This document shows positions 16,246-46,600 of a stretch of DNA of 64,000 nt, piece by piece. Each line of letters opens with the position of its first letter. Position 1 is the stretch's first letter. The notes under the pieces are model-generated. The model saw only the letters and a program-made list of their open reading frames with translations, was not told the DNA's origin and did not search any database. A program made the position numbers and the translations under genes. The DNA is from Pirellulales bacterium (GTDB taxonomy: Bacteria; Planctomycetota; Planctomycetia; Pirellulales; PALSA-1355), in contig CAVTBU010000005.1 in the NCBI GenBank assembly GCA_963733035.1, positions 1,472,001 to 1,536,000 of the forward strand, read 5' to 3'.

Positions 16246-17544
16246 ATGCTTCCACAACGACTCCTGACGCTCGTCATCATAACCTGCTCGCTTTGTTCGT
16301 TGGCACAGGCCGAACTGAAGGTCGGCGTTGGCAAGGCGATCATCACGCCCGATCCGCTGCTGCCTGTCTCCGGCGGCGTCGGCCCCGGCAATCCGTCCAC
16401 CGGCAAGCAGGGCGAGCTGACCGCTCGCGCCATGGTCTTCCAACAGGGTGAAACCACAGTCGCTTTCGTGCAACTCGACCTCCTTGGCTTCCCCTCGGTA
16501 CTTTGCGAACGCGTTCACAAACAGGTCCCTCGCATTCCGGCCGACAACATTCTTATTGGCTCGACGCACACGCATAGTGCTCCAGACTGCTACGGCTTTC
16601 CTGGCCCCAACGGTAGAGCCTCGGGCAATCTGAAGTACATGGACTTTGTCTGCAATCAGGCGGCGATTGCCATCAACCAGGCGTTCGACAACCTTCAGAC
16701 CGCCCAACTCAAGATGGCCACCGGCGAAGCCAAGGGAAAGATCGCCTACAACTATTACGCTCCGGAGCTTTACGATCCGCGGATGAGCGTCATTCAGGCC
16801 GTCTCCCCAGCCGGCGAAACGATCTGCACTTTGGTCAACTATGCCATCCATCCGGAAGTTCTCGGCAGCGGAGTCGGCCTTGTCAGCCCCGACCTTGTCG
16901 GCCCGCTGTGCGACAAACTCGAGACCGATCTTGGCGGCATGGGAATGTTCATGAACGGCGCACAAGGAGGCATGATCACGGCCGACAACCGTCGGCTTGA
17001 AAACCCCTCCGACCCGATCCACGCGAAGTGGCACGACTCCCGCACCTGGGAAGAGTGCCTGCGGATTGGTCAACTGATGGCCTCCGAAGCGGAGCGTATT
17101 GTCAAAGACGCCAAACCGCAAACCGACCCCGGCCTTGCCTGCTTTGCCCGGGAGGTCAAGTTCCCGGTTGCTTCCGACCTGATGTGGACCATCATCTTGG
17201 CCTCGCCGTTGAAGTATCCGCACAATAGCGACAAGTCGATCACCACGCGTATGAACCTGGTGAATCTCGGCAACGCCCAGATCCTCACCATCCCGGGCGA
17301 AGCCCTCCCCAACATCGGCTACTACATCAAGCGACACATGAAAGGGGAAAACAATCTACTGTTCGGCCTCACCAACGACGCCTTTGGCTACATCCTCACC
17401 AAGGTCGATTTCAATAGCTTCAAGCGCTACGAATACGTCTCACGTACCTCACTCGGCGAAATGACGGGCGAAATCCTCATTGAGAACGCGCTCGAATTGA
17501 TCGAAGAGTCGCCCGCGCCGGAAGCAATCGACGGCAAGAATTGA
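16246..17544 (+). CDS. Secreted neutral/alkaline ceramidase-like protein
   Basis: Signal peptide; VGVGKAIITP, STHTHSAP, NYAIHP, NGAQGG, IPGE and GLTNDAFGYI motifs. Confidence 0.75.
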   Translation: MLPQRLLTLVIITCSLCSLAQAELKVGVGKAIITPDPLLPVSGGVGPGNPSTGKQGELTARAMVFQQGETTVAFVQLDLLGFPSVLCERVHKQVPRIPADNILIGSTHTHSAPDCYGFPGPNGRASGNLKYMDFVCNQAAIAINQAFDNLQTAQLKMATGEAKGKIAYNYYAPELYDPRMSVIQAVSPAGETICTLVNYAIHPEVLGSGVGLVSPDLVGPLCDKLETDLGGMGMFMNGAQGGMITADNRRLENPSDPIHAKWHDSRTWEECLRIGQLMASEAERIVKDAKPQTDPGLACFAREVKFPVASDLMWTIILASPLKYPHNSDKSITTRMNLVNLGNAQILTIPGEALPNIGYYIKRHMKGENNLLFGLTNDAFGYILTKVDFNSFKRYEYVSRTSLGEMTGEILIENALELIEESPAPEAIDGKN

Positions 17545-17611
17545 CGGGCGGCATTTCAGGCTGATTGACATTACTTACTACGGCAGCGAATCATCGCCGC
17601 CATACGAAAAT

Positions 17612-17639
17612 CGGCCGCTGTCCGGTGGAGACAGCGGCC
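17612..17639. terminator. Hairpin between convergent genes, also downstream of the degenerate tRNA relic
   Basis: GGCCGCTGTC / GACAGCGGCC 10-bp perfect stem with an A-run on the left. Confidence 0.6.
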
Positions 17640-17647
17640 ATCAGAAA

Positions 17648-17674
17648 AGCGGGCCAAGCAATTCGAACGTTCGA
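17648..17674 (-). pseudogene. Degenerate tRNA-Gly 3'-end fragment (old att scar)
   Basis: AGCGGGCCAAGCAATTCGAACGTTCGA matches 19197-19223 at 22/27 positions and sits beside a homologous hairpin. Confidence 0.65.
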
Positions 17675-17763
17675 TCGGACCAAGGAGTCGATTGGTTCGC
17701 GGCGCAGGGATGGTTAACTCTGCGATGCGCGGGGTGCGTCAGCCGGCGAAACACGGTTGACGC

Positions 17764-18852
17764 TCAGCATCCCCTTCTTCGTCCGATCAGGACCAGTGCG
17801 ACGAGCCCCAGGCCCGCGATCATCAGCGATGAAGGTTCCGGAATCGCCATGCAGGCATTGTTGATCCAAGCGATGTCGGCCGCGGTGAGCAAGTTTGCGC
17901 CGCTTGCGATGTTATCCGAGAACAGTTGCGGGTTGTTGTTATTTCCAAAAGTGTGCACGGCGAAAATCGTGTCGCTAAACGCACTGATCGTCTGCGTTCC
18001 TACTGGATCTCCGTACACGTCGGTCAACCCGTCGACCGTGAAGTTCACCGCATCGGACGTGAAATATGGCCCGCCGGAATCACCACCGAAACTTGACCCG
18101 ACACCTAAATCCGGGTTGCCGGGACTGACGGGGCCGGGGTTCCATTTCACATCGGTATAGGTGTAACCATCATGTGCCGCCCCGGCGTTAACGCTCACGG
18201 GATTCGCATTGTCGAAGCGTTGGATGCCGACTGACAATTGAGGCGTAAACCCGTCCTGGATGCCCGAATCGTAATGCGGCACGCCGGTGAGACCGTATCC
18301 CACTTCCGTGAAGGTTCCTGGTAAGTTGCCGAGAGTGAGACTAGCCGGGGGAGTCCAGAGTTGAAGGTCTTGGACGCTGACGAAAAACGGATCGACCACG
18401 CCATAGCGGATGAAAGCCACCGCGAGATCCTCATTTCCTGTCGAACCGCCGCGCACGGTGTTCACGATGGGATAGGTGGCCGCAAAGCTATTGGCCGGGT
18501 TCGTGCCGTCGCCAAAATAGCCAAAGCCGATGCTATTGGCGCCTGCCGCGACGACATGGTCGGCCGTGAGTACGCAGAAGTAACCGATTTGTTGGGCCCC
18601 TTCAGTGATATAGTGTGACCCAATAATCGAACCAGTTCCGACGTCGACGGTCGGACTTTTGGTCATGTCGACCACCGAATAGAAGTTGCTAAAAGCCGTG
18701 GGATTTGTCGTTTGCTGGACCGGCGCGGTTGCCCAGGCCGAATGACACACCATGAACAAAGCGCTGCATGCCAAGATGACTGGGATGGGCAATCGCCCGA
18801 TTCGAGATCGGGACTGTCGAGCGTGGTCGCGGAACGTCGCTTTGCCATTCAT
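17764..18852 (-). CDS. PEP-CTERM protein with trypsin-like (S1) serine protease domain
   Basis: Catalytic-triad motifs VLTADHV, EDLAV and GDSGGP; C-terminal IPEPSS + TM + RRR. Confidence 0.85.
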   Translation of the reverse strand: MNGKATFRDHARQSRSRIGRLPIPVILACSALFMVCHSAWATAPVQQTTNPTAFSNFYSVVDMTKSPTVDVGTGSIIGSHYITEGAQQIGYFCVLTADHVVAAGANSIGFGYFGDGTNPANSFAATYPIVNTVRGGSTGNEDLAVAFIRYGVVDPFFVSVQDLQLWTPPASLTLGNLPGTFTEVGYGLTGVPHYDSGIQDGFTPQLSVGIQRFDNANPVSVNAGAAHDGYTYTDVKWNPGPVSPGNPDLGVGSSFGGDSGGPYFTSDAVNFTVDGLTDVYGDPVGTQTISAFSDTIFAVHTFGNNNNPQLFSDNIASGANLLTAADIAWINNACMAIPEPSSLMIAGLGLVALVLIGRRRGC

Positions 18853-18959
18853 CAGCGATCTCCTTGGTTAGACGGTCGCCGAAGTGGACATGGGGCAGAC
18901 AGTGGATCGCCGTGTCGACATTCAAGGCAGACCGCGGACTAGAAAACCCACGATTGCAC

Positions 18960-18987
18960 ACTGTAGCGTGCCGTGAGACATAGTCAA
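18960..18987 (-). promoter_or_regulatory. Putative sigma70 promoter of the PEP-CTERM protease gene
   Basis: Minus strand TTGACT-16 nt-TACAGT. Confidence 0.55.
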
Positions 18988-19158
18988 CAAAAAGCTGCGA
19001 GAAGTCAGTTTTCAACAACGGATTCTCGCCTTGCACCGTTCCGACCTGCCTCGGGCTTGAACGTTGCGGAGACGCACAAAACCGACAGATCGCCGGCACT
19101 TGGCACACTGAGGAGAACACGATGTCGAAGCAAGCCGCCGCGCCTGATCCCAATGCAT

Positions 19159-19189
19159 ACGGCCGCTGTCCACGCCAGACAACGGCCGT
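19159..19189 (-). terminator. Hairpin immediately downstream of the tRNA-Gly fragment
   Basis: Minus strand ACGGCCGTTGTC-7 nt-GACAGCGGCCGT with one G-U pair. Confidence 0.55.
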
Positions 19190-19196
19190 CACAAAG

Positions 19197-19241
19197 AGCG
19201 GGCGAAGGGATTCGAACCCTCGACATCCAGCTTGGGAAGCT
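19197..19241 (-). tRNA. 3' half of tRNA-Gly(CCC) (att site, not an intact gene)
   Basis: Minus strand AGCTTCCCAAGCTGGATGTCGAGGGTTCGAATCCCTTCGCCCGCT contains the anticodon arm with CCC, the T arm and the acceptor 3' strand. No D arm or 5' acceptor strand is present upstream. Confidence 0.9.
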
Positions 19242-19297
19242 ACCCGCTCCAATCCCTAAGTGCCAACTCCGGCCAACTTACGTCGACCGATTCTTCG

Positions 19298-19329
19298 GCT
19301 TGCACCGCAGCTTGCACCAGCTGTGCAAC
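19298..19329. repeat. Short direct repeats resembling integrase arm-type sites
   Basis: GCTTGCACC-gca-GCTTGCACC-a-GCTGTGCAAC; a further CTTGCACCG lies at 19030-19038. Confidence 0.55.
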
Positions 19330-19571
19330 GGCTGAAAAGCAAGAGCCCATCTCCGCCGTTAGAAGTTCGCGACCCCGTGTCGCCAAAGCCCTGACGGCGC
19401 TCGGAACGTTCGTCGAAAAGTTGCTCGCGCTCTCATCGCGCGACCGCGAGCAGCTAATCGCCCTACTCGAAACGGCAGAAGGCGAGCAGCCAAATCATCA
19501 CGCGAACGCGTGCACCGGCGAAGATGCGCATTAAGTCCCAATTGATTCTGCATAAAACGAGGTTCATGACG

Positions 19572-20009
19572 ATGGGCGGTATTGGTAGTGGAAGGCGGCT
19601 TGGTAGATGTCCTCGTCTGACGACGGATGACTGTCTGTGTCTCGATGTGAATCAGCTGTCCAGAGACGGCGTGCTCTGCCCGAGCTGGCGGGGACTACTG
19701 CACTGGAAGTTGCACGGGTCGAACGAATTATTTGCCAGCCTTCGATGCATCGCCGAACTTGACAGCCAGGGCCACCGACGCCTCCGCCTCAGCTACAGAC
19801 TCGACGATGGTCGCGAAATCGAAACTTTCATTCACATCCTGACGAGCCGACCTCATTTCGGAGGCGTGCGGAATTGGTTCCAGTGCCCCGGCGGGCGTCT
19901 TGGCACCGTTTGCGCTAGACGCGTAACGAAGCTCTATCTACGCGGCTCGCATTTTCTGTGTCGGCATTGTCAGGATCTGCGATACCGATCACGGTCAAAT
20001 CGGAGGTAG
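19572..20009 (+). CDS. Mobile-element-associated hypothetical protein with Zn-finger-like Cys motifs
   Basis: MGGIGSGRR...FGGVRNWFQCP...CARRVTKLY...FLCRHCQDLRY, a pattern recognised from phage/island hypotheticals; possibly C-terminally truncated. Confidence 0.65.
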   Translation: MGGIGSGRRLGRCPRLTTDDCLCLDVNQLSRDGVLCPSWRGLLHWKLHGSNELFASLRCIAELDSQGHRRLRLSYRLDDGREIETFIHILTSRPHFGGVRNWFQCPGGRLGTVCARRVTKLYLRGSHFLCRHCQDLRYRSRSNRR

Positions 20010-20055
20010 CGGTCGTTCAAGATAACCGAGTTTCTTTCGTCAAAGGAGTTTTCAA

Positions 20056-20323
20056 ATGGGTAGAAGTGTACTACCGCCGTACACGCCAGAGCAAATTGCC
20101 ATATTGGCCCAAGCCTTGGAGAAGGCGATTGAACAGATCGCCTATCAAGAGGAGGTCATGCGCAGAGCGCAAATCAAAAAGCGTCACGCTTGGCGACGCT
20201 ATGCTGCACAGGAGCTATCACCGCATTCTTCGATTCGCCGTTGCCCTTGAGCGCGGGGTTAATCAAGCCATCGACTGTCCGCGTCCGGTCCCCTGGGACG
20301 ACCGCCGAAATTGCGAAGGCTAA
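20056..20323 (+). CDS. Small hypothetical protein, probably one gene with an A-run frameshift at ~20176-20180
   Basis: RBS AAGGAG; MGRSVLPPYTPEQ...AQIK continues as SVTLGDAMLHRSY...NCEG* if one A is removed. Confidence 0.4.
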
Positions 20324-20352
20324 ATACTTCACCTTAAAAACGAGAGGTCAGC

Positions 20353-20952
20353 ATGTACTTGCAATGTCACGTCACCGCTTCGACTCGTCGGAGGTCCATC
20401 GAAGACTACGTTCGCGAGGTCAATGTCGATGTAATGGAGTATGGAGAGGAGGGAGCCATAGAGATTCTTCTTGGCCGGTTTGCATTCCAGCAAATCTTAT
20501 GGTCAGAGATTGAGTTGGATGGACAAGACGCGCATTCGGTTTTTGAAGAGTACTCGGACGACCTCGAGGCAGTCTATTTTTGTTTTGTCGACGAGTACGG
20601 CGATATACGATCTGAGTTTCAGGCGGAGGCACACGTCTCCCGCATCGTGGTCCTTGACCGGATGGTCTTGCACCCAAAGATCCTTAAACACGGCCAGCAT
20701 CTCTTGGAGGCTGCGCTCAATCTCTTCGGCACTAGTGTTTTCGTCGTATCTTGGCAAGAAGTGCCGCCACTAGCGGACAAGTCACTCGCAGAATTGGGAT
20801 TCAGAAGGGCTGCGGAGACGAATTTCATCTATCGGCACTCGAGTCTTCGGAGAAGCTACGAGAAGCGGTACCCGCGCGGGTACGAGAAGTTCGTCGATGC
20901 AAAACCCCGTTATGAGCAGTGGGTAATAGATGCGTGGACCAAGACGCAATAA
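20353..20952 (+). CDS. Hypothetical protein (199 aa)
   Basis: RBS GAGG, globular composition, no recognised motif. Confidence 0.7.
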   Translation: MYLQCHVTASTRRRSIEDYVREVNVDVMEYGEEGAIEILLGRFAFQQILWSEIELDGQDAHSVFEEYSDDLEAVYFCFVDEYGDIRSEFQAEAHVSRIVVLDRMVLHPKILKHGQHLLEAALNLFGTSVFVVSWQEVPPLADKSLAELGFRRAAETNFIYRHSSLRRSYEKRYPRGYEKFVDAKPRYEQWVIDAWTKTQ

Positions 20953-21029
20953 AGCAAATGCGCAAACTGCGAATGGTACCGCTCACACGCCCTCCGTAAA
21001 CAGCGGGGTTTTGTGGGTGCACGGTAGCA

Positions 21030-21120
21030 GAATAAAAACGCCCACGGCGACCGAAGCTGCCGCGGACGTGAGTTCCCCGGCTCGACGGAGCTAGGATCGA
21101 GCGGGAACGGTCTCTCCAAA
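21030..21120 (-). ncRNA. Candidate small RNA 1 (hairpin + UUCG terminator hairpin)
   Basis: GTTCCC-GCTCGA/TCGAGC-GGGAAC stem; ACGTCCGCGGCAGC-TTCG-GTCGCCGTGGGCGT followed by TTTTATT; promoter-like motif directly upstream; no credible ORF. Confidence 0.55.
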
Positions 21121-21121
21121 C

Positions 21122-21153
21122 ATTAAGGCGCCCAAATGCACGGAAACCGGACA
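21122..21153 (-). promoter_or_regulatory. ECF-type promoter-like motif, copy 1
   Basis: TGTCCG-16 nt-GCGCCTTAAT. Confidence 0.55.
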
Positions 21154-21302
21154 CCAGGACAGCATTTGCAAGACCGGCACCTCGCAACGTTTGCCACTGT
21201 TTGTCACACCTGAGAGCGGGGGTGATTTTTCACCTAATGTGGCTGGTAACCGTCGGTCGAATTGTACAAAAGGCAGCCGCCACGAAACGGGGCAGTTGCT
21301 CG

Positions 21303-21344
21303 GCCCGCACCTTTTGCTGCCCCGCAGGTGCGGGCGTTTTTTTT
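21303..21344 (+). terminator. Intrinsic terminator lying upstream of a small membrane-protein gene
   Basis: GCCCGCACCT / AGGTGCGGGC 10-bp stem followed by G and T8. Confidence 0.75.
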
Positions 21345-21362
21345 ACTCGACGAACAAGAACC

Positions 21363-21527
21363 ATGTACACAGTAGTCGTCCTGCTTTTCGCTGTGGGTAT
21401 CGCACTGGCGGTACTTCTATCGTATTTTGTTTGGGACACAATGCGTCACACTAGCAAGGTCAGTGACGCCGCCGCCCAGCGTGCCAAGCTACGTGCGGAA
21501 CTCAACCGAAACAAATCGAACTCGTAG
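21363..21527 (+). CDS. Small single-pass membrane protein (54 aa)
   Basis: MYTVVVLLFAVGIALAVLLSYFVW followed by a basic helical tail. Confidence 0.55.
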   Translation: MYTVVVLLFAVGIALAVLLSYFVWDTMRHTSKVSDAAAQRAKLRAELNRNKSNS

Positions 21528-21764
21528 CTGCGCTGCGGTCACATCCGAGTCAGCAGCGTAACGCCTCGCCAAAGGCGCCCGCTTCATTTCTGGCTGAATC
21601 CGAGTGCTCGACGTGTTGTGACAAAATCTGTCAACTTTCTTTTCAGGCGCGTTTGGAGTCTATTAGCACGTTAAGTCACCGTTGGCGAGGACGTGCCGGA
21701 AATTGCTGGAGCGTCCCTGGACCAGACGCCTCGCCCAGCATGAAGTTGGGCGGGGCGTCTTTTT

Positions 21765-21965
21765 TCAACACAACCAAGTTGAGGACGCAGAAAGCATGCG
21801 GTCGTCAGACTGGTTCAGTCTTGCCCACAACCGCTGCATCGCGCGGGTCCACAGCTTGCGTGCGGCGTCATCGCTGCAATCCATCGCTGCGCCGACTTCT
21901 GCAAACGTCAATCGATCCACACTTCGGCGCACGATCTGACAGTAAGTCCTCGGTAGTCCCGCCGA
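21765..21965 (-). pseudogene. ECF sigma factor region-4 fragment, paralog of the 3' end of 23697-24404
   Basis: LTFAEVGAAMDCSDDAARKLWTRAMQRL versus LSFAEVGAAMDRSGDAARKLWTRAMQRL; no region 2 upstream. Confidence 0.8.
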
Positions 21966-22019
21966 GCGGCATGAGGCCGGCACCGTTCAATCTTTGCGTC
22001 GAAGGTATCATTCGCGGCA

Positions 22020-22367
22020 TCACACGCCGACGAATTCGCCACCGCTGATGTACCATCCGTCTCCGCAGGGCTCGCACCAAATAATGTTCAGAGGCACGAT
22101 TGTCGGAGGACCGTCCGGACAGGAAATCCGGCATTCAACTTCACCGGGGACCAGCTTGATGTCATGCAACAGTCCGACACCAAACCGCGAGATTTCTCGA
22201 CTGAATGCCGCGTGCGGCCGGCCGTCGGAAGTTCGCAGCGATACGGATCGAAAGAATGCATGACGCCCGCCACGCAGGCGATGCCTCTTTTCGTTTTTCT
22301 GCGCGTAATTAATAAGGTTCGCAATTGATCCCGAAACTTGGGCTTGCGTCGTTGATTTGTTCGACAT
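22020..22367 (-). CDS. Stand-alone PilZ-like domain protein
   Basis: RBS AAGGAG; Arg-rich RHRLRGGR, REISRFGVGL (D/NxSxxG-like) and IIWC...YISGGEF. Confidence 0.65.
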   Translation of the reverse strand: MSNKSTTQAQVSGSIANLINYAQKNEKRHRLRGGRHAFFRSVSLRTSDGRPHAAFSREISRFGVGLLHDIKLVPGEVECRISCPDGPPTIVPLNIIWCEPCGDGWYISGGEFVGV

Positions 22368-22792
22368 GGGTTATCTCCTTGGAAGGTGGGGGCTCTCTGC
22401 GAGACGTTCCCCTTGAAGGAAGTTCAGGATTGAGTCACCGGCCAATCTGTTAGGCCAACCAATCGGGGTGGGTGAAGGAACCCGTCGCAAGCTTAGGTCA
22501 CTAGAACGCAAGGAGCCTTACATCTGCACGCTACTTGATTGCGACTTTGCGTCAGCTCGAACGGGTTTTGCTGATACTAGCCATCTTTCAAATCCAGAAT
22601 TGTTTCGCACCTAGGACTCAACCTGACATAGCACGGATGCCGATTCCATTTCGTTGGTTAGCCCGACGCAATCGACGCGGCCAATATCGAGGCTGGAGTG
22701 AACTTGTCGCGATGGTTTGCTGGTGAGGCATCCATTCACGTAGGACCTGTCGTGCGACAACAAAGGGTCACCGGCTCACTGTTGATGGGTCC

Positions 22793-22889
22793 ATAAAAAA
22801 GCCCGCGTCACCCTTTCGGCGCGACGCGGGTTTCGCAGCAGCTCCGGGTATTACATGTGGCGCACAGAATCCCCGGAGGGGCGATACTT
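22793..22889 (-). ncRNA. Candidate small RNA 2 (hairpin + GAAA terminator hairpin)
   Basis: CTCCGGG...CCCGGAG extended stem; CCCGCGTCGC-gCC-GAAA-GG-GTGACGCGGG followed by C and T6; promoter-like motif directly upstream. Confidence 0.55.
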
Positions 22890-22920
22890 ATTAAGGCGCG
22901 GAAACCAAGCGAAACGGACA
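22890..22920 (-). promoter_or_regulatory. ECF-type promoter-like motif, copy 2
   Basis: TGTCCG-15 nt-GCGCCTTAAT. Confidence 0.55.
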
Positions 22921-22999
22921 AAAAATCGGATGGCGACTTCCGAACCCGATTCGCCGGGCTATGAATCACAGCTGTTTCCAGAGAGCGGCAGAGACTTGT

Positions 23000-23305
23000 C
23001 TAGCGAAATCGGTCTTCGGAGCCGGCCGTGCGCAGGTGAGGCTCGAGCTTCGCCATCAAATAGCGACCGTCGAGGCAGTCGATGAGGGTGGACATGACTG
23101 CGAGCTTGGTGTCGTTTGTATCGTCCGGTAGCCAGGCGTTAGCGGGTGTGGCCATTATGAATATCTCAGACAACTCGTCGGCAGTGGTCTCGGAACGGAG
23201 AAGCACATAGAGCGTTGAGAGCCAATTCGACTGCCCGAACGTTAACGGCAATCCGAAGACCGCTAAGGTTTCGCGGATGGTCGCTACAAGCCGCTCGCTT
23301 TTCAT
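23000..23305 (-). CDS. Hypothetical protein (101 aa)
   Basis: RBS GGAGGT before ATG 23305 (MKSERLVATIRETL...). Confidence 0.55.
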   Translation of the reverse strand: MKSERLVATIRETLAVFGLPLTFGQSNWLSTLYVLLRSETTADELSEIFIMATPANAWLPDDTNDTKLAVMSTLIDCLDGRYLMAKLEPHLRTAGSEDRFR

Positions 23306-23495
23306 TGCGTCACCTCCCAAATCTCGGCGAAGTCTTCTCCTTGGTACGATCCTCAATGCATGCAACACGACGCACACCGAGAGCGGTGTTGGCAAATCAC
23401 CCTAGTGACACCCCCGCCGGCCAACAGGCGAACGCGGACGTATGGACAGTCCCGATGGAGCCGCTAAGCAGTATCGGGAGCACCCTCAATCTACG

Positions 23496-23523
23496 AGGCG
23501 CTTTTTGAACGACAAACTGGACG
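23496..23523 (-). promoter_or_regulatory. ECF-type promoter-like motif, copy 3
   Basis: CGTCCA-16 nt-GCGCCT, ~170 nt downstream of the sigma gene stop. Confidence 0.5.
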
Positions 23524-23696
23524 CATTACTGATTTGTCATGAGTTCTTGCAGCCAGCGCGGACGAACGGTGTCACTGCATCGAGTACCGCTTGAGCAACG
23601 TGTGACTGTTTGCTGCCGCCAACGAATCTCCGGATGTACTAGAGCCGGCGACGTCGATGGTGGCCGTCTAGACGTAAAAAGCTTGCGGTCGTCGCA

Positions 23697-24404
23697 TTAC
23701 TTCAGGTTCGCACGCAATCGCTGCATTGCGCGGGTCCATAGCTTGCGTGCGGCGTCACCACTGCGATCCATCGCTGCGCCGACTTCTGCAAACGACAGTC
23801 CCTCCAAATTCCTAAGTACAACGGCTTGACGATAACTCTCGGGGAGCCGTCGCAGCGCCCATTGAAGCAGGGCACTATCCTCGGCATCAACGCACCATTG
23901 GCAAGGCGATTTGCACGCAGCAGCACTTGTCGGTTCGAGATCCTTGCCGACAAGGGCATTCAAACTGAGCTCGCGGCAGATGGCACGCTTTGGGGTCAAA
24001 TAACGGCGGCGGGTATCACGCACGCGATTTAAAAGAATTGCTCGCAGCCAGCCAAGTAGCTCTTTTTCCGTGGACCCTTGAAAGCAACTGAATTCTGCCT
24101 GCGCGGCAAGCAAGGTATCTTGGACGACATCCTCCGGGTCCAGTTTTGCGCGGAATCGCTCTGGCAGTAGGCGGTCTGCCACGTGCAGCAGATAACGCTG
24201 GCTGCACTGGAGAAGATAACCCTGAGCTTCCGTACAACCATCGGAGGCCAACCGAATACAGGCATCCTTCTGAATCGAGAGGCTCGGCTCCCCTCCAAAA
24301 ACCGCATTTGGTACTTTTTCGGCGACCGTAATCATGGTAGTGCTGGGGGCAAAAGTCGAAAATGCATCTTCAGGCAGTGTGTAATTCTTACGGCTATTCT
24401 TCAA
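23697..24404 (-). CDS. ECF sigma-70 factor, planctomycete type (no adjacent kinase); start uncertain
   Basis: KLDPEDVVQDT, LLGWLRAILLN and LSFAEVG...AARKLWTRAMQRL motifs. Confidence 0.9.
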   Translation of the reverse strand: MKNSRKNYTLPEDAFSTFAPSTTMITVAEKVPNAVFGGEPSLSIQKDACIRLASDGCTEAQGYLLQCSQRYLLHVADRLLPERFRAKLDPEDVVQDTLLAAQAEFSCFQGSTEKELLGWLRAILLNRVRDTRRRYLTPKRAICRELSLNALVGKDLEPTSAAACKSPCQWCVDAEDSALLQWALRRLPESYRQAVVLRNLEGLSFAEVGAAMDRSGDAARKLWTRAMQRLRANLK

Positions 24405-24543
24405 GTAGCCTGCAGGAGGGTTTGGTTGAACGAGAAATTCATGGAGTGCCTACGCTTGGTGCCGTGCTGACGGGCGTCGCCAAAAGAAGCTGGACGGGAA
24501 CAGAACCGGCCTGGCTCGATGGACCCAAATTGGCTGGCGATTC

Positions 24544-37641: not shown

Positions 37642-40600
37642 CTACCGCTCGCTGGCCTTGCCAGAGGGTCCGCTGGGGCGTGGTGGCGCAAGCCGTGGCG
37701 AGGCAAATTGGTCGATCTGGTCGGACAAGTCAACGATGGCGGCATCAACTGCGGCCGGTTTCTGAGTTGAAATCACCGTGTCCGGCTCGCTTGTCATCGG
37801 TGCTGCTGCGGCTGATTGAAGTTCGAGGAGCGCGGTGGCGTGGAGCGATTGAACTGTTGTGTCGGGAGAATTGAGCGGCGCGGCAGATAGATCAGAAGTG
37901 TCGATACTCATCGTACTGGCCGTCAGTGCGCTGACGATCAGGTTGCCTTGGAAAAGCTCAGCGACTTCATTAGGTTGCAAAGCCCGATTGGCGATGAGCA
38001 CGTCGTCAACGCGTCCTTGCATCGAGCGTCCGCCGTCTTCCTCCGCGCCGATGGACAGCCCGAGGTCATTTGTGCCGATCGTAAAATTGGCCGCCTTGGA
38101 CGCTTCCAGCTGACCGTTGATGTACATGCGAATCGTGGTCCCGTCATACGTCGCCACAACGTGCATCCAGGTCGTGCCGTTCGTCGGGTACTTGGACGTC
38201 GAATCCACGCGAAACGCATTGCCTGCACTGTCTTGATTGAAGCGAACGAACACGGTGCCTGAATTGCTCAGCGCTAGTTCATAGCCGTCTACGCTTTGAG
38301 TGATTGATTTGGTCACGAGCGATTGCGTAGCCTGTGCCTCGGGCGAAATCCAGGCCGCAATCGTGATGCTGCCGGTGATATCCAGGCTAGCCGCGTCCGG
38401 GACCACCACGTGCGGGTGGACCGTTCCTATGGGTTGCGGCAACGCCACCGAACCGGCCAGCACCAGTCCCGTACCATTCTGACCGGCACCAAAAGCGGCG
38501 CCGTCTTGCAGGCTGCCGTCATTGCCGCTGCCGGAAGAATCATGGACCGTCGAACCGGATCCCTCGTTGAACTGCCAGAATCCCACGAGGCCGGTGGAAG
38601 TACTGGCTGGCGATACGGTGACGGTTACGTCGTCGCTGGCGCTGAGTTCGCCGTCCGAGGCGGTCAGCCGCAATACGTACACACCCTCGGCACTGAACGT
38701 CGCCGAGGTGGATGGGGCCGCGGCGTTGCCAAAGCTGACGCTGCCTGGCCCGCTAACCGTGCTCCACTGGGTAATTAAGTTGGACGGGCTGGGCAGCCCG
38801 TCGTCCGACACCGAACCGCCTAGCGCGATGGCCACGCCCGCCTGTCCGCTAACATCCGAGCCTGCACTCACCGTGGGCGGCTGGTTGGCCGGAGCCGCGG
38901 GATTGAAATTGCCCACGTACACCTGCGCGATCTCAGTCGCCGAGAGCGCCCGGTCCGTGATCAGCACTTCATCCAGTTGGCCCTGCATCGAGGTGGTGCC
39001 ACCATTGCCGGAGCCGAAAGTGAGCGCCAGGTTGTTCGTGCCAATCGCAAATGTGGCTGCCTTGCTGGCCTGCTGCTGGCCATTGATGTACAGCCGAATG
39101 GTCGAGCCATCGTAGGTGGCGGCCACGTGCAGCCAGGTGTTGCCGTTGGTCGGATAGCTTGACGTCGAATCAACGCGATACGTGTCACCTGAACTGGCCT
39201 GGTTGAAACGTACGAACACCGTGCCGCTGTTGCTCAGGCCCAGTTCAAAGCCATCGGTCGCGTTGCTGGCTGCTTTGCTGACGATGGTTTGCGTTCCATT
39301 GGCGCTGGGTTTGATCCATGCCGTGATCGTGATCGCATCGGCGATCTGCAATTGGGGAACGTCTGGCACGACGTAGCTCTGTCCGGAGCCGTTGAGGTTG
39401 AGCCGGCCGTTACTGCTGACCGTGGCACCCCCTTGCAAGCTGCCCAGGTTGCCGATCTGGCTGGGGTACGCCGCCCCGAAGCCCGGCAAAAAGTTCCAGA
39501 ATCCCACGAGGCCAGTGGACTCGCTGGTTGGCGATACGGTGACGGTTACGTCGTCGCTGGCGCTGAGTTCGCCGTCCGAGGCGGTCAGCCGCAATACGTA
39601 CACACCCTCGGCACTGAACGTCGCCGAGGTGGATGGGGCCGCGGCGTTGCCAAAGCTGACGCTGCCTGGCCCGCTAACCGTGCTCCACTGGGTAATTAAG
39701 TTGGACGGGCTGGGCAGCCCGTCGTCCGACACCGAACCGCCTAGCGCGATGGCCACGCCCGCCTGTCCGCTAACATCCGAGCCTGCACTCACCGTGGGCG
39801 GCTGGTTGGCCGGAGCCGCGGGATTGAAATTGCCCACGTACACCTGCGCGATCTCGGTCGCCGAGAGCGCCCGGTCCGTGATCAGCACTTCATCCAGTTG
39901 GCCCTGCATCGAGGTGGTGCCACCATTGCCGGAGCCGAAAGTGAGCGCCAGGTTGTTCGTGCCAATCGCAAATGTGGCTGCCTTGCTGGCCTGCTGCTGG
40001 CCATTGATGTACAGCCGAATGGTCGAGCCATCGTAGGTGGCGGCCACGTGCAGCCAGGTGTTGCCGTTGGTCGGATAGCTTGACGTCGAATCAACGCGAT
40101 ACGTGTCACCTGAACTGGCCTGGTTGAAACGCACGAACACCGTGCCGCTGTTGCTCAGGCCCAGTTCAAAGCCATCGGTCGCGTTGCTGGCTGCTTTGCT
40201 GACGATGGTTTGCGTTCCATTGGCGCTGGGTTTGATCCATGCCGTGATCGTGATCGCATCGGCGATCTGCAATTGGGGAACGTCTGGCACGACGTAGCTC
40301 TGTCCGGAGCCGTTGAGGTTGAGCCGGCCGTTACTGCTGACCGTGGCACCCCCTTGCAAGCTGCCCAGGTTGCCGATCTGGCTGGGGTACGCCGCCCCGA
40401 AGCCCGGCAAAAAGTTCCAGAATCCCACGAGGCCAGTGGACTCGCTGGTTGGCGATACGGTGACGGTTACGTCGTCGCTGGCGCTGAGTTCGCCGTCCGA
40501 GGCGGTCAGCCGCAATACGTACACACCCTCGGCACTGAACGTCGCCGAGGTGGATGGGGCCGCGGCGTTGCCAAAGCTGACGCTGCCTGGCCCGCTAACC

Positions 40601-43600
40601 GTGCTCCACTGGGTAATTAAGTTGGACGGGCTGGGCAGCCCGTCGTCCGACACCGAACCGCCTAGCGCGATGGCCACGCCCGCCTGTCCGCTAACATCCG
40701 AGCCTGCACTCACCGTGGGCGGCTGGTTGGTAGCGATTCCCGGTGGGAAATCTCCCGCGTAAAGGGCAGTCACTTCGCTGGGATCGAGTGCCCGATTGGC
40801 AATCAGGACGTCGTCAATCCGGCCCCGCATGCCACGGCTGCCGGTGGGATCGGCTCCGATTCCCAACCCGAGGTTATTGGCATTGATCGTGAACACGGCC
40901 GCCTTTGACGCTTCCAGTTGGCCGTTGATGTACATGCGAATCGTGGTGCCGTCGTACGTGGCCACGACGTGCATCCAGGTGGTGCCATTGGTCGGATAAG
41001 TAGAATTCGAATCCAAGCGGAATGAATTGCCCGAGCTGGCCTGGTTGAAGCGTACGAATACCGTTCCCGAGTTACTCAGCGACAACTCATAACCGTTCAC
41101 GTTTCCGGTCGACTTTTGCACCACCGATTGGGTTCCGGTCGTGTAGGGCGCGATCCAGGCGGCGATGGTGATGTTTTGAGTAACATTGAGACTTGATGAG
41201 TTGGGCACCAAAGTCGACTGACTTGCGGTTCCCATAATCAGGCCATTGCCGTTTTGTCCGGCACCGAAAGAGGCCCCTTGTTGCAGGGTGCCGTCATTGC
41301 CTTTGCCGGACGAATCATGGGCCGTTGAACCCGAAGCTTCGTTAAAATGCCAGAATCCCATGATGCCACTGGACGCCAGCACGGCATTGATAGTGATCGT
41401 ATTGGGGCTTGGGTCGAGGTTCACTCCGCCATTGGCGGACCCGCCGTCGTCTTGAACCTGAAATGTAAAGCTGGCATAGTTCGACCCCTGCGCGTCGGCC
41501 GCCGGCGTAAACTGCAACTTGCCCGCCGCAATATCAGCCGCGGAGACGAACTGCCCGATAGAGACGGCCGCGCCGTTGTATGTCAGGGCACCCGCGCCCG
41601 GCAGACTGGCAATTCGCACCGCTTGCAATGCGTTGGCCGGGGAATCACCAGGATCGCTGAAACCAAAATCGACAACCTTCAAAGTGTACGCGACCCCGCT
41701 GATCGTCGTGATCGTGTTGTCGCTGCCGGACGGTGCGTCGTTCACCGCAGTCACATTGACGGTAATGGTGTTCGGCGTCGGATCGAGGTCGCTGCCACCG
41801 TTGGCCGTGCCGCCGTTATCCTGCACTTGAAAGGTGAGGCTCGTGTAACTCGAACCGTTGGCATTGGCTGCGGGAGCAAACTTGAGCTTGCCGGCTGTGA
41901 TGTCGGCCACCGCAATGAACTGCCCTGCAGAGACTGCCACACCGTTGTCACTCAGCGACCCAGCCGCGGGCAGCGTGGTGATCTTCACCGCCACCAGACT
42001 GCCCGCTGGCGAGTCATTGGGGTCGCTGAAGCCGAAGTCGGCTGCGGAGAATGTATACGCCGTGTCCTCCAGCGTGGTGATGATCTTGTTCGTCCCAGAC
42101 GGCGGATCGTTTACCGCCGTGACGTTGACGGTGATGGTGTTCGGCGTCGGATCGAGGTCAGTACCCCCGTTGGCCGTGCCGCCGTTGTCCTGCACCTGGA
42201 ACGTGAAGCTCGTGTAACTCGAACCATTGGCGTTGGCTGCCGGAGCAAACTTGAGCTTGCCGGCCGTGATGTCGGTTGCGCTGATGAATTGTCCTGCCGT
42301 AACCGCCGCACCACCATTGGTGAGCGAACCGGCCGCGGGTAGGCTCGAGATTTTGACCGCCAAGAGTGCATTGGCCGGCGAGTCATTAGGATCGCTGACG
42401 CCGAAGTCGGCCGCCGAGAACGTGTAGCCCGTGTCCTCCAGCGTGGTGATGGTCTTGTTTGTGCCAGACGGCGGATCGTTTACTGCCGTGACGTTGACGG
42501 TGATCGTGTTCGGCGTGGGATCGAGATCCACGCCGCCATTGGCCGTGCCACCGTTATCCTGCACCTGGAACGTGAAGCTCGTGTAACTCGTCCCGTTGGC
42601 GTTGGCTGCCGGAGCAAACTTGAGCTTGCCGGCCGTGATGTCCGTCGCGCTGATGAATTGTCCAGTGGTGACCGCCACGCCATTGTTGCTGAGCGCCCGG
42701 AAATGGGCAGCGTCGTGATCTTTACCACAAATAGGCTATTGGCTGGAGAATCAATCGCGTCACTGAAGCCAAAGTCAGCCGCAGAAAATGTGTAGGTCGT
42801 GTCTTCCAGCGTGGTGATGATCTTGTTTGCGCCAGACGGCGGATCGTTTACTGCCGTGACGTTGACGGTGATCGTGTTCGGCGTGGGATCGAGATCGATG
42901 CCACCATTGGCTGTGCCGCCGTTATCCTGCACCTGGAACGTGAAGCTGGCGTAGCTCGTGCCACTAGCGTTAGTGGCTGGGGCAAAGACAAGCTTCCCGG
43001 CCGTGATGTCTGTCACGCTGATGAATTGACCAATGGTGACCGCCAAACCGTTGTCCGCCAAGGTGCCCGCGCCGGGAAGGCTGGCAATACGCACTGCCTG
43101 TAACGTGTTCGCGGGAGAGTCGTTTGAATCGCTGAAGCCAAAATCGGCTGTCGAGAACGTGTAGGCCGTGTCTTCTAGCGTGGTGATCGTCTTGTCGCTT
43201 CCGGATGGCGAATCGTTGACCGAGGTGACGTTGATGGTGATCGTATTCGGGGTGGGATCGAGATCGACGCCGCCATTGAGCGTGCCGCCATTGTCCTGCA
43301 CTTGGAACATGAAGCTCGTATAGTTCGTACCGCTGGCATTGGCTGCGGGAGTGAATTTCAGCTTGCCCGTGGTGATATCGGCGAGGGCAATGAACTGGCC
43401 GACGGTGACGGCGACGCCGTTATCGGTCAGTGCGCCGGCAGTGGGGAGCGTTGCGATCTTAACGGCGAACAGACTATTAGCCGGGGAGTCGCTGGGATCG
43501 CTAAAACCGAAGTCGGCTGCGGAGAACGTGTAAGCCGTATCCTCCATCGCGGTGATGGTCTTGTCGCCACCAGACGGCGGGTCGTTCACCGCCGTGACGT

Positions 43601-46600
43601 TGACCGTGATCGTATTCGGCGTGGGATCGAGATCGACGCCGCCGTTGGCAGTGCCGCCGTTATCCTGCACCTGGAACGTGAAGCTGGTGTAACTCGTCCC
43701 GTTGGCGTTGGCAGCGGGAGTGAACTTCAGCTTGCCGGCCGTGATGTCGGCCACAGCGATGAATTGCCCGGCGGTGACTGCCACGCCGTTGTCGGTAAGC
43801 GCCCGGCAGTCGGGAGCGTCGTGATCTTCACCGCCAGCAGGCTGTTCGCGGGCGAGTCGTTGGGATCGCTGAAGCCGAAGTCGGCCACGGAGAACGTGTA
43901 GGCCGTGTCTTCCAGCGTGGTGATCGTCTTGTCGGTTCCGGACGGCGCGATCGTTCACCGCCGTGACGTTGACGGTGATCGTGTTGGGTGTGGGATCGAG
44001 ATCGACGCCGCCATTGGCCGTGCCGCCGTTATCCTGCACCTGGAACGTGAAGCTGGCATAGCCTCCGCCGCTGGCGTTGGCGGCGGGCGTGAAGTCAAGC
44101 TTGCCGGCGGTGATGTCGGCCACGGTGATGAATTGGCCGGCGGTGACGCCAACCCGTTATCGGTCAGCGCGCCGGCCGCGGGGAGCGTCGTGATCTTAAC
44201 CGCGAACAGGCTATTGGCCGGGGAGTCATTGGGATCGCTGAAACCGAAGTCGGCCGCGGAAAACGTGTAAGCCGTATCTTCCAACGTGGTGATGGTCTTG
44301 TCGCCACCAACCGGCGGGTCGTTCACCGCCGTGACGTTGACCGTGATCGTATTGGGTGTGGGATCGAGATCCACGCCGCCGTTGGCAGTCCACCGTTATC
44401 CTGCACCTGGAACGTGAAGCTCGTGTAACTCGTCCCGTTGGCGTTCGTAGCGGGAGTGAATTTCAGCTTCCCGGACGTGATGTCTGCCAGAACGACGAAT
44501 TGTCCAGCAGTGACTGCCACGCCATTGTCGGTCAAGCTGCCCGCGCCGGGGAGGCTGGCGATACGCACCGCCTGCAATGTGTTCGCGGGGGAATCATTGG
44601 AATCGTTGAAGCCAAAATCGGCCGTCGAGAACGTGTAGGCCGTGTCCTCGAGCGTGGTGATCGTCTTGTCGGTTCCGGACGGCGCATCGTTGACCGAGGT
44701 GACGTTGATGGTGATCGTGTTCGGGGTGGGGTCGAGATCCACGCCGCCGTTGGCCGTGCCGCCGTCGTCCTGCACCTGGAACATGAAGCTGGAATAGCTC
44801 GCGCCGTTGGCGTTCGGGACGGGAGTGAACTTGAGTTTGCCGGCGGTGATGTCGGCCACGCTGATGAATTGGCCGACGGTCACGGCGACCCCATTGTCGC
44901 TGAGCGTTCCAGCCGCTGGGAGCGTCGAAATCATGACCGCCATCAGCGAGTTGGCTGGCGAGTCATTGGGATCACTAAAACCGAAGTCGGCCGCGGAAAA
45001 CGTGTAGGCCGTGTCTTCCAAAGTGGTAATGGTCTTATCCGCGCCCGCCGGGGCATGGTTGAAACCCGTCACGTTGAACGTGATCGTATTGGGGGTTGGA
45101 TCAAGATCGACGCCGCCGTTCGCTGTGCCACCGTTGTCCTGTACCTGGAATGTGAAACTGGCGTAGCCAGCGCCGGTAGCGCCGGCGGCCGGGGTGAACT
45201 TGAGCTTGCCGGCCGTGATGTCGGTCACCGTGATGAACTGCCCGGCGGTGATCGCTACGCCATTGTCAGTCAGCACCCCGGCAATCGGGAGCGTCATGAT
45301 TTTAACCGCCAACAAACTGTTGGTTGGTGAGTCATTGGGGTCGCCGAAACCGAAGTCAGCCGCCGCGAACGTGTAGACCGTGTCTTGCAGTGTGCTTACC
45401 GTCTTGCTCGTGCCAACGGGCGGGTCGTTGACGGCGGTGACGTTGAACGTGATCGTATTGGGTGTGGGATCACGAAAGGCTATTGGCGGGGAAATCGTTG
45501 GCGTCACTGAAGCCAAAGTCGGCCGCGGAGAACGTGAAGGCCGTGTCTTCCAAGGTGGCGATGGTCTTGTCCGTGCCGGACGGCGAATCGTTGACCGAGG
45601 TGATGTTGATCGTGATCGTGTTGGGGTGGGTCGAGATCGACGCCGCCGTTGGCCGTCCCACCGTCGTCCTGCACCTGGAACGTGAAGCTGGCGTAACCTC
45701 CACCGTTGGCATTGGCGGCGGGCGTGAACTTGAGCTTGCCGCTCGTGATGTCAGCCACCGAGATGAACTGCCCGGCGGTGACTGCTACGCCATTATCGGT
45801 CAGTGCCCCGGCCGCGGGCAGCGTCGTGATCTTTACTGCAAACAGACTGTTGGCAGGGGAGTCGCTCGGGTCGCTAAAGCCGAAGTCAGCTGCGGAGAAA
45901 GTGTAGGCCGTATCTTCCAGCGTGGTGATGGTCCTATCCGCGCCGGCCGGCGAATCATTGACCGCAGTGACGTTGATCGTGATCGTTTTAGGAGTTGGAT
46001 CAAGATCGATGCCACCGTCGACCGTACCGCCGTTATCCTGCACTTGGAACGTGAAGCTCGTGTAGCTCGTGCCACTGGCGTTAGTGGCGGGTGTAAACAC
46101 AAGCTTCCCGGCAGTAATGTCTGTTACGCTGATGAATTGTCCGGCAGCGACGGCTGTGCCGTTGTCGCTGAGCGTCCCAGTCCCCGGTAGACTCGAAATC
46201 TTGACGGCCAACAAACCGTTGGCTGGCGAGTCATTGGAATCGCTGAAGCCGAAGTCCGCCGCGGAGAATGTGTAGGCCGTGTCTTCCAAACGTGGCGATG
46301 GTCTTGTTCGTTCCGGATGGCGGATCATTGACCGCGGTAACGTTGATATTGACGATTGCGGAATTGGAGTTGGCGGAGTTATCGTTTGCCTGGTAGGAGA
46401 AGGAGTCGGGTCCGGAGTAGTTGGAGTTGGGGGTGTAGGTGAAGGAGCCGTCGGAGCCGAAGGTGAGCGAGCCGTGGGCCGGTCCGCTGACGAGCGCGGC
46501 GGTCAGCAGGTCGCCATCGGCGTCGGTGTCGTTGGCCAGCACGCCGGGGGCGGCCACCGTGAGCGGCGTGTCCTCGCTGGTCGAGTAGCTGTCGCCAGTG

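Follow-up and report, generated by a model that had tools for sequence, protein, structure and literature searches.

A predicted small RNA with a putative alternative-sigma promoter on an integrated island of a Pirellulales bacterium

Small RNAs (sRNAs) under alternative sigma factors, sRNAs of mobile elements and antisense RNAs of toxin-antitoxin systems are the described systems closest to the locus presented here. In Escherichia coli, MicA, RybB and MicL are sRNAs under the control of sigma-E. InvR and IsrJ of Salmonella are sRNAs located on acquired islands or prophages, and they have known regulators and targets. RatA/TxpA of Bacillus is a type I toxin-antitoxin system, in which the antisense RNA is convergent and overlaps at the 3′ end. 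FoxJ of Fusobacterium (PMC11005410) likewise counts among the sRNAs of envelope-stress ECF sigma factors. A full-text literature search returned nothing on small RNAs in planctomycetes, on a promoter motif such as the one described below, or on links between ECF sigma factors, exosortases and sRNAs. A supplementary text file of PMC7826278 had 0 occurrences of GTCCG, exosortase and PEP-CTERM; the promoter logos of that paper are figures.

We analyzed a stretch of 64,000 nucleotides (hereafter, the window) of the genome of a soil-dwelling Pirellulales bacterium (G000). Positions 21152-21031 of its minus strand hold a unit, sRNA1, which we interpret with moderate confidence as a stand-alone non-coding sRNA gene of about 90 nt that would be driven by an alternative sigma factor. 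Like the sRNAs of the sigma-E type, sRNA1 is a short, predicted non-coding unit with a putative alternative-sigma promoter directly upstream and an intrinsic terminator. The set to which it belongs also appears to comprise several unrelated sRNAs with one promoter type, and the same motif is found upstream of a sigma-like gene, as would be expected of a self-regulating sigma factor. However, the promoter-like blocks of sRNA1 (GTCCG and CGCCTTA) are not the sigma-E consensus, there are only candidates for its cognate sigma factor, and sRNA1 has no sequence or Rfam kinship with those sRNAs, being species-specific and located on a mobile island. The resemblance to InvR and IsrJ lies in its position inside an integrated element, which is delimited by a direct repeat and by a tRNA gene with an integrase, and in its absence from sister species. 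Unlike the elements of these two sRNAs, the island of sRNA1 seems to carry a candidate sigma factor, and the host is a planctomycete rather than an enterobacterium. With RatA/TxpA, sRNA1 shares its convergent orientation and its place beside an accessory gene of a mobile element, but the product of its neighbor has 199 aa and is not a small hydrophobic peptide, and no overlap is predicted between the two transcripts.

Should sRNA1 prove real, it would provide, together with its siblings, a first handle on sRNA regulation in planctomycetes through a short recognizable promoter by which several small terminated units of one genus are marked. It would also tie a candidate sigma factor to exosortase/PEP-CTERM protein sorting, and would show that a sigma factor and the sRNAs dependent on it can arrive together on a mobile island. 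Taken alone, sRNA1 is a single-species candidate with modest stakes; the weight lies in the shared promoter and in the link to the sigma-like/exosortase pair.

Structure, strand and coding potential of sRNA1

The elements named in a first-pass annotation of this DNA (a motif, a 5′ tail, a hairpin and a terminator) were all present on the minus strand as read from the sequence. The predicted transcript runs from 21121 to 21031 and measures about 87-91 nt, with its 5′ end placed at the first purines past the -10-like block and its 3′ end inside the U-tract. It begins with a 13-nt tail, GUUUGGAGAGACC (21121-21109), which is mostly unpaired in the centroid structure. Hairpin 1 (21108-21072) consists of 13 pairs with a 2-nt bulge and a 9-nt loop, and folds at -17.1 kcal/mol (z -2.53). 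The loop, CCUAGCUCC (21095-21087), is predicted to be unpaired and is closed by a U.G pair; the loop given in the annotation, UCCUAGCUCCG, corresponds to this loop plus the closing pair. Two free bases then separate hairpin 1 from the terminator (21069-21031), which has its stem at 21069-21038, a UUCG tetraloop at 21055-21052 and the U-tract UUUUUAUU at 21038-21031, the first U of which (21038) closes the stem. The stem contains 11 pairs, one A/C mismatch and 2 further pairs below the UUCG loop, in agreement with the annotated 14-position stem with one mismatch, UUCG and a U-tract. With a GC-rich stem-loop and a U-tract directly after it on the transcribed strand, the 3′ end of sRNA1 has the makeup of an intrinsic terminator. 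A simple terminator scanner missed this site, probably because of the one internal mismatch; our own finder, in which one mismatch was allowed, caught it.

Folding of the predicted transcript (21031-21121, minus strand) gave the stable two-hairpin structure that had been proposed, with a minimum free energy (MFE) of -41.8 kcal/mol (z -3.35), and one of 200 shuffled sequences folded as well. A slightly longer segment (21025-21125, minus strand) gave -42.0 kcal/mol (z -2.76), again with one equally good shuffle in 200. The terminator hairpin alone reached -20.7 kcal/mol (z -4.34), a value attained by 0 of 200 shuffles.

The terminator is strand-specific. On the plus strand its hairpin folds at -11.7 kcal/mol (z -0.91), a loss of 9 kcal/mol, because three G.U pairs turn into C/A mismatches there, and the sequence that follows is GAGTTCCCC, without a T-tract. 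These values bear on the reading that the two hairpins serve solely as a terminator or 3′-end stabilizer, either for the convergent plus-strand gene or for minus-strand read-through from a PilZ-domain ORF (22367-22020), which we consider very unlikely. Hairpin 1 would suit this reading, being equally stable on both strands (-17.1 kcal/mol on the minus and -17.3 kcal/mol on the plus strand) and therefore uninformative on the strand, and no strong minus-strand terminator was listed between the PilZ ORF and 21120. However, the convergent gene has a terminator-like site of its own. This gene, a 199-aa ORF (20353-20952, plus strand) that closes a three-gene module, has no Pfam, PADLOC or NCBIfam match and no assigned family, and a terminator scan placed a terminator-like hairpin with a T-tract at 20992-21018 behind it (hairpin 20992-21008). 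The first-pass annotation had itself held that its proposal would fail if the hairpins acted only as the terminator of 20353-20952, a scenario disfavored by the strand energies and by the separate hairpin at 20992-21008. Read-through from the PilZ ORF would have to proceed for about 900 nt, antisense to a plus-strand ORF, and neither version accounts for the exact motif that ends 3 nt before the unit.

Open frames of 120, 69 and 38 codons overlap sRNA1, so that one could think of a small protein encoded in this region, but we regard this as extremely improbable. The frames have TTG, TTG and GTG starts, respectively, and each of them extends through the terminator stem or the promoter. No Pfam match was obtained for the 120-aa frame, and its two weak matches in 32 other genomes of the family (E 0.002-0.004) both contained in-frame stops, so that no credible homolog was found there. 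Past the GGAGAG of the 5′ tail, no start codon occurs at a usable distance. The earlier statement that the region has no credible ORF was thus borne out. Furthermore, there is no same-strand gene downstream of the terminator, and sRNA1 is therefore not a leader or riboswitch.

Rfam and BLAST searches, both named as checks in the annotation, revealed no relatives of sRNA1. The whole window gave 0 matches to Rfam 15 at the gathering score, and the 3 weak matches obtained for 17500-24500 at E values up to 10 lay outside 21031-21152. A genome-wide blastn-short search for paralogs yielded chance matches of at most 19 nt, and when the upstream 76 nt were slid along the window without gaps, no similarity emerged. 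No homolog was detected among 40 relatives, in which the best match other than to itself measured 23 nt (E 0.0076 per genome), nor in three congeneric genomes (G001-G003) when sRNA1 was compared together with 19 kb of context. Compensatory pairs were seen in two sibling units only, sRNA2 and sRNA3. These searches suggest that sRNA1 is species-specific and stands outside any described RNA family.

The promoter-like motif and its sibling units

Upstream of sRNA1 lies a bipartite motif on the minus strand (21152-21124), composed of GTCCG (21152-21148), a 17-nt spacer and CGCCTTA (21130-21124). It had been recognized in the first-pass annotation and is real; both blocks are exact. A second copy, GTCCG-N16-CGCCTTA, is found at 22919-22892 on the same strand, and its blocks are kept in G002 and G003. 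In the 6.65-Mb genome, the stricter pattern TGTCCG-N14-19-CCTTAAT has exactly two occurrences, 21153-21122 and 22920-22890, which lie 1.77 kb apart on the minus strand; it gave 1 match in 32 other genomes of the family, and its reversed-pattern control gave 4 in 33 genomes. According to our own terminator finder, terminator stems end 84 and 89 nt past the two motif copies, against a genome-wide background of 0.267 terminator-like sites per kb per strand. A search of 19500-23000 for sigma-70-like promoters gave 0, with 1.4 expected. The motif probably behaves like the promoter of an alternative sigma factor, a reading based on the lack of a sigma-70-like site nearby and on the comparison with the congeners, in which the blocks are fixed and the spacer diverges.

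Frequency alone does not single the motif out. The 12-base core pattern GTCCG-N15-18-CGCCTTA occurs 5, 3, 6 and 4 times in the four genomes of the genus vs 9, 11, 7 and 9 times for the reversed control. Since these raw counts are not above the control, the case rests on context and not on counts. When one mismatch was allowed per block, 51 of 1130 sites lay within 160 nt of a terminator, with about 4.3% expected, i.e. there was no enrichment, and three such sites that we inspected were in or beside open frames. An extended pattern, GTCCGNTTT-N11-14-CGCCTTA, had 7 sites in the 4 genus genomes and 1 in 29 genomes of other genera (control: 2 in 33), but it was written from those very sites and its enrichment is therefore not independent. 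The single site outside the genus is intergenic and directly follows a terminator. Independent arguments for the motif can be drawn from the blocks, which stay fixed as the spacers diverge, from the terminators, and from a site that precedes a sigma-like gene. The sequence CGCCTTAAT occurs a third time on the plus strand (26561), within the coding end of a PEP-CTERM-type ORF, and this site was dropped.

Motif copy 2 is followed by a predicted unit, sRNA2 (22891-22790, minus strand), with a hairpin and a terminator (-44.2 kcal/mol, z -2.61). Homologs of sRNA2 with 75-76% identity exist in G002 and G003, in a different gene neighborhood. In the alignment of the three sequences, GTCCG and CGCCTTA are invariant while the spacer differs at 7 of 16 positions, and the consensus fold shows a compensatory change in 2 of 32 pairs. 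The bodies of sRNA1 and sRNA2 are not alignable, and what they have in common is the promoter motif and the overall architecture. Contigs from four DNA metagenome runs cover sRNA2 with 0-1 differences; 20728-21369, including sRNA1, was uncovered in these runs.

The same blocks precede two more predicted units in the congeners. One of them, sRNA3, measures about 125 nt plus a terminator and is present in G001, G002 and G003 (L034:1501-1665, L043 and L033); it was found in these three congeners only among 33 genomes of the family, and its consensus fold from the three sequences has a compensatory change in 3 of 40 pairs. The other, sRNA4, measures about 75 nt plus a terminator and occurs in G002 and G003 (L038 and L031). 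The sibling units of the congeners had no relevant Rfam match, and a blastn search showed that G000 lacks every congener motif unit except sRNA2. Sibling units sit in unrelated gene contexts. A further orthologous motif site in G002 and G003 has no terminator within 170 nt, and in G001 a site precedes a PEP-CTERM protein gene by about 105 nt. The set served by one promoter type would then consist of sRNA1, sRNA2, the two congener units, one PEP-CTERM gene and the site upstream of a sigma-like/exosortase pair.

Candidate sigma factors and possible targets

The window encodes an ECF-type sigma factor at 23697-24404 on the minus strand (Pfam Sigma70_r2, Sigma70_r4 and Sigma70_ECF), whose best NCBIfam match, Sig-70_plancto1, is below the cut-off. 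Relatives of this factor in G001-G003 share 43-46% identity with it, which does not exceed the identity of its paralogs in G000, so that the motif-bearing congeners have no close ortholog of it. Read by eye, the 160 nt upstream of this gene contain no exact motif copy. The usual ECF consensus has an AAC-containing -35 element and a CGT-type -10 element, which the blocks GTCCG and CGCCTTA of sRNA1 do not resemble. The first-pass annotation had described sRNA1 as a stand-alone ECF-driven sRNA. The stand-alone part agrees with the unit having its own terminator, a strand-specific hairpin and an upstream motif, all of which concern a predicted transcript. The motif likewise looks like that of an alternative sigma factor, but control by an ECF factor is conjectural, given that none of the motif-bearing congeners has a close ortholog of the neighboring ECF gene.

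Another gene may be more relevant. The motif site of G002 and G003 that has no terminator precedes, by about 0.78 kb, a 202-aa ORF that is weakly sigma-like, with Sigma70_r2 at E 0.0049, below the cut-off, and NCBIfam sigma matches also below the cut-off. The ortholog of this ORF in G000 (C5:1569063-1569638, within a gene at C5:1569051-1569710) is 56% identical. About 0.73 kb upstream of it we found GTCCG-N17-CGCCTTG, one mismatch away from the motif, and it is followed by an exosortase (8TM_EpsH, 152 bits vs a cut-off of 105.55). Motif copy, sigma-like gene and exosortase together span G000:C5:1568057-1570365, outside the window, and the same arrangement is seen in G002 and G003. Because the motif lies about 0.75 kb upstream in all three genomes, we rank the sigma-like gene next to the exosortase as a better candidate for the cognate factor than the ECF gene at 23697-24404. 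A motif at this place is the pattern expected of a self-regulating sigma factor, and would link the motif to the exosortase/PEP-CTERM system. The gap of about 0.75 kb is long and poorly conserved. In addition, G001 has intact motif sites, yet its best relative of the sigma-like protein is 34% identical. We also considered an island circuit, in which the divergent, exosortase-linked sigma-like protein reads GTCCG-N16/17-CGCCTTA and has as its main direct outputs sRNAs (sRNA1 and sRNA2 in G000, other rapidly evolving ones in sister species) that tune the production of PEP-CTERM surface proteins, as a planctomycete counterpart of the sigma-E repressor arm. Such a circuit is speculative, and we think it rather improbable.

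If sRNA1 is a stand-alone gene, an alternative sigma factor would recognize GTCCG-N17-CGCCTTA, and transcription would start a few bases downstream, near 21121-21116, and end at the intrinsic terminator, which is strong and strand-specific; the product would be a non-coding RNA of about 90 nt. This RNA would offer a 13-nt free 5′ tail and a hairpin with the C/U-rich loop CCUAGCUCC, the loop and the tail being the parts predicted to be accessible. Its most likely role would be that of a trans-acting base-pairing regulator made when its sigma factor is active. A CUCC-containing loop can pair with GGAG ribosome-binding sites, in line with the anti-Shine-Dalgarno-like role put forward in the first-pass annotation, and either the loop or the 5′ tail of sRNA1 may pair with translation-initiation regions containing GGAG. 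A duplex-energy scan over 6140 crudely called start regions had its minimum at -57.7 kcal/mol, vs -55.6 to -61.5 kcal/mol for 4 shuffles. Loop-complementary 8-mers were present in 20 of the 6140 crude initiation regions, and in 3 and 50 for two controls. Neither scan thus rose above its controls, and the anti-Shine-Dalgarno role is a putative one. A few start regions have GGAGCTA(G) over the ribosome-binding site and can be taken as leads only. A 19-nt near-complement on contig C7 was rejected as a target, since it is inside a coding frame.

Island, duplicated module and neighboring features

At the distal island end, 49 nt from the 3′ part of tRNA-Gly(CCC) recur as a direct repeat (19194-19242, minus strand). 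The intact tRNA-Gly(CCC) gene is located at C5:1587510-1587583, on the same strand as the repeat, and a tyrosine-integrase match (C5:1586715-1587209) adjoins it. The window itself contains no tRNA gene, and the syntenic position in G003 holds an intact homologous tRNA. The repeat, the intact tRNA and the integrase therefore indicate an integrated island of about 96 kb, which extends from 19243 past the window end. It carries sRNA1 (1.8 kb inside), sRNA2, the ECF gene and the sigma-like/exosortase pair with its motif. The G+C content around sRNA1 is 0.52-0.57, vs 0.60 for the genome. The location on the island accounts for this lower G+C content and for the fact that sister species lack sRNA1.

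The three-gene module at 19200-20885, next to sRNA1, is duplicated at G000:C2:13545-15265 with 66% DNA identity over 1743 nt. Its ORFs, one of 161 aa with a Cys-rich end, a short middle ORF and the one of 199 aa, have no family matches, and both module copies start near a tRNA-like fragment. The 199-aa ORF has a 61%-identical paralog on C2. Searches of genome and metagenome contigs for its relatives gave none (52 and 55 pattern-matching stretches, 0 confirmed), and at the order level 4 distant matches were obtained in 150 other genomes. Downstream of the C2 module, on the convergent side, there are GTCCG-N17-CGCCATT and a segment that shares 18 of 22 positions with the terminator of sRNA1 (3′ arm plus T-tract). 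This C2 stretch folds poorly (z -0.45), and its global similarity to sRNA1 is not significant (z 0.97). A true paralog of sRNA1 was not upheld by these two values; the stretch is possibly a decayed copy of the sRNA1 unit, which we treat as a lead.

The C2 stretch suggests that module and unit are linked, and sRNA1 could accordingly be thought of as a cis-acting partner of the 199-aa gene module, which would act by transcriptional collision or by pairing with the 3′ ends of read-through mRNA. The unit is convergent with the 199-aa gene and starts 80 nt past its stop codon, and the C2 module is likewise followed by a convergent GTCCG-N17-CGCC and a related T-tract segment. We nevertheless judge this role to be quite unlikely. 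The predicted 3′ ends, about 21018 for the terminator tail of the 199-aa mRNA and about 21031 for sRNA1, do not overlap, and the global similarity of the C2 unit to sRNA1 is, as noted above, not significant. Moreover, the module homology ends at 20885, before the sRNA1 unit, and the siblings with the same promoter are found in unrelated contexts.

The island setting also bears on whether the unit is alive. Promoter-like blocks and a terminator could be left over in a decaying or silent relic, the fold being that of a terminator plus a GC-rich palindrome. Species specificity, the position in a lower-GC part of the island (0.52-0.57 vs 0.60), other debris nearby (a sigma region-4 fragment at 21816-21959 and the tRNA fragment) and the partly similar, decayed-looking unit behind the paralogous module on C2 are all in line with such a relic. 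On the other hand, neutral decay would not be expected to leave both blocks exact at canonical spacing, the UUCG terminator intact and the strand specificity based on G.U pairs in place. A relic is for these reasons unlikely, and we prefer to see sRNA1 as a stand-alone sRNA gene.

Several other features were noted in the neighborhood. The sigma region-4 fragment (21816-21959, minus strand) has 69% protein identity to residues 186-234 of the ECF gene (23697-24404) and is an apparent pseudogene remnant. The PilZ-domain ORF (22020-22367, minus strand) lies between both sRNA units and was recognized at E 0.0013, below the Pfam cut-off. A 54-aa membrane ORF at 21363-21527 on the plus strand has a weak similarity to LapA_dom, also below the cut-off. 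It is flanked by plus-strand terminator-like hairpins at 21321-21345 and 21724-21760, the first of which is 17 nt before its start codon and may represent a leader or another small plus-strand RNA. Finally, arrays of 369-nt and 921-nt tandem repeats occur twice in the window, at 37797-46326 and 58730-63105, 20,933 nt apart and with some blocks 93-100% identical. These arrays are presumably repeats inside giant protein genes, and an assembly duplication may be involved.
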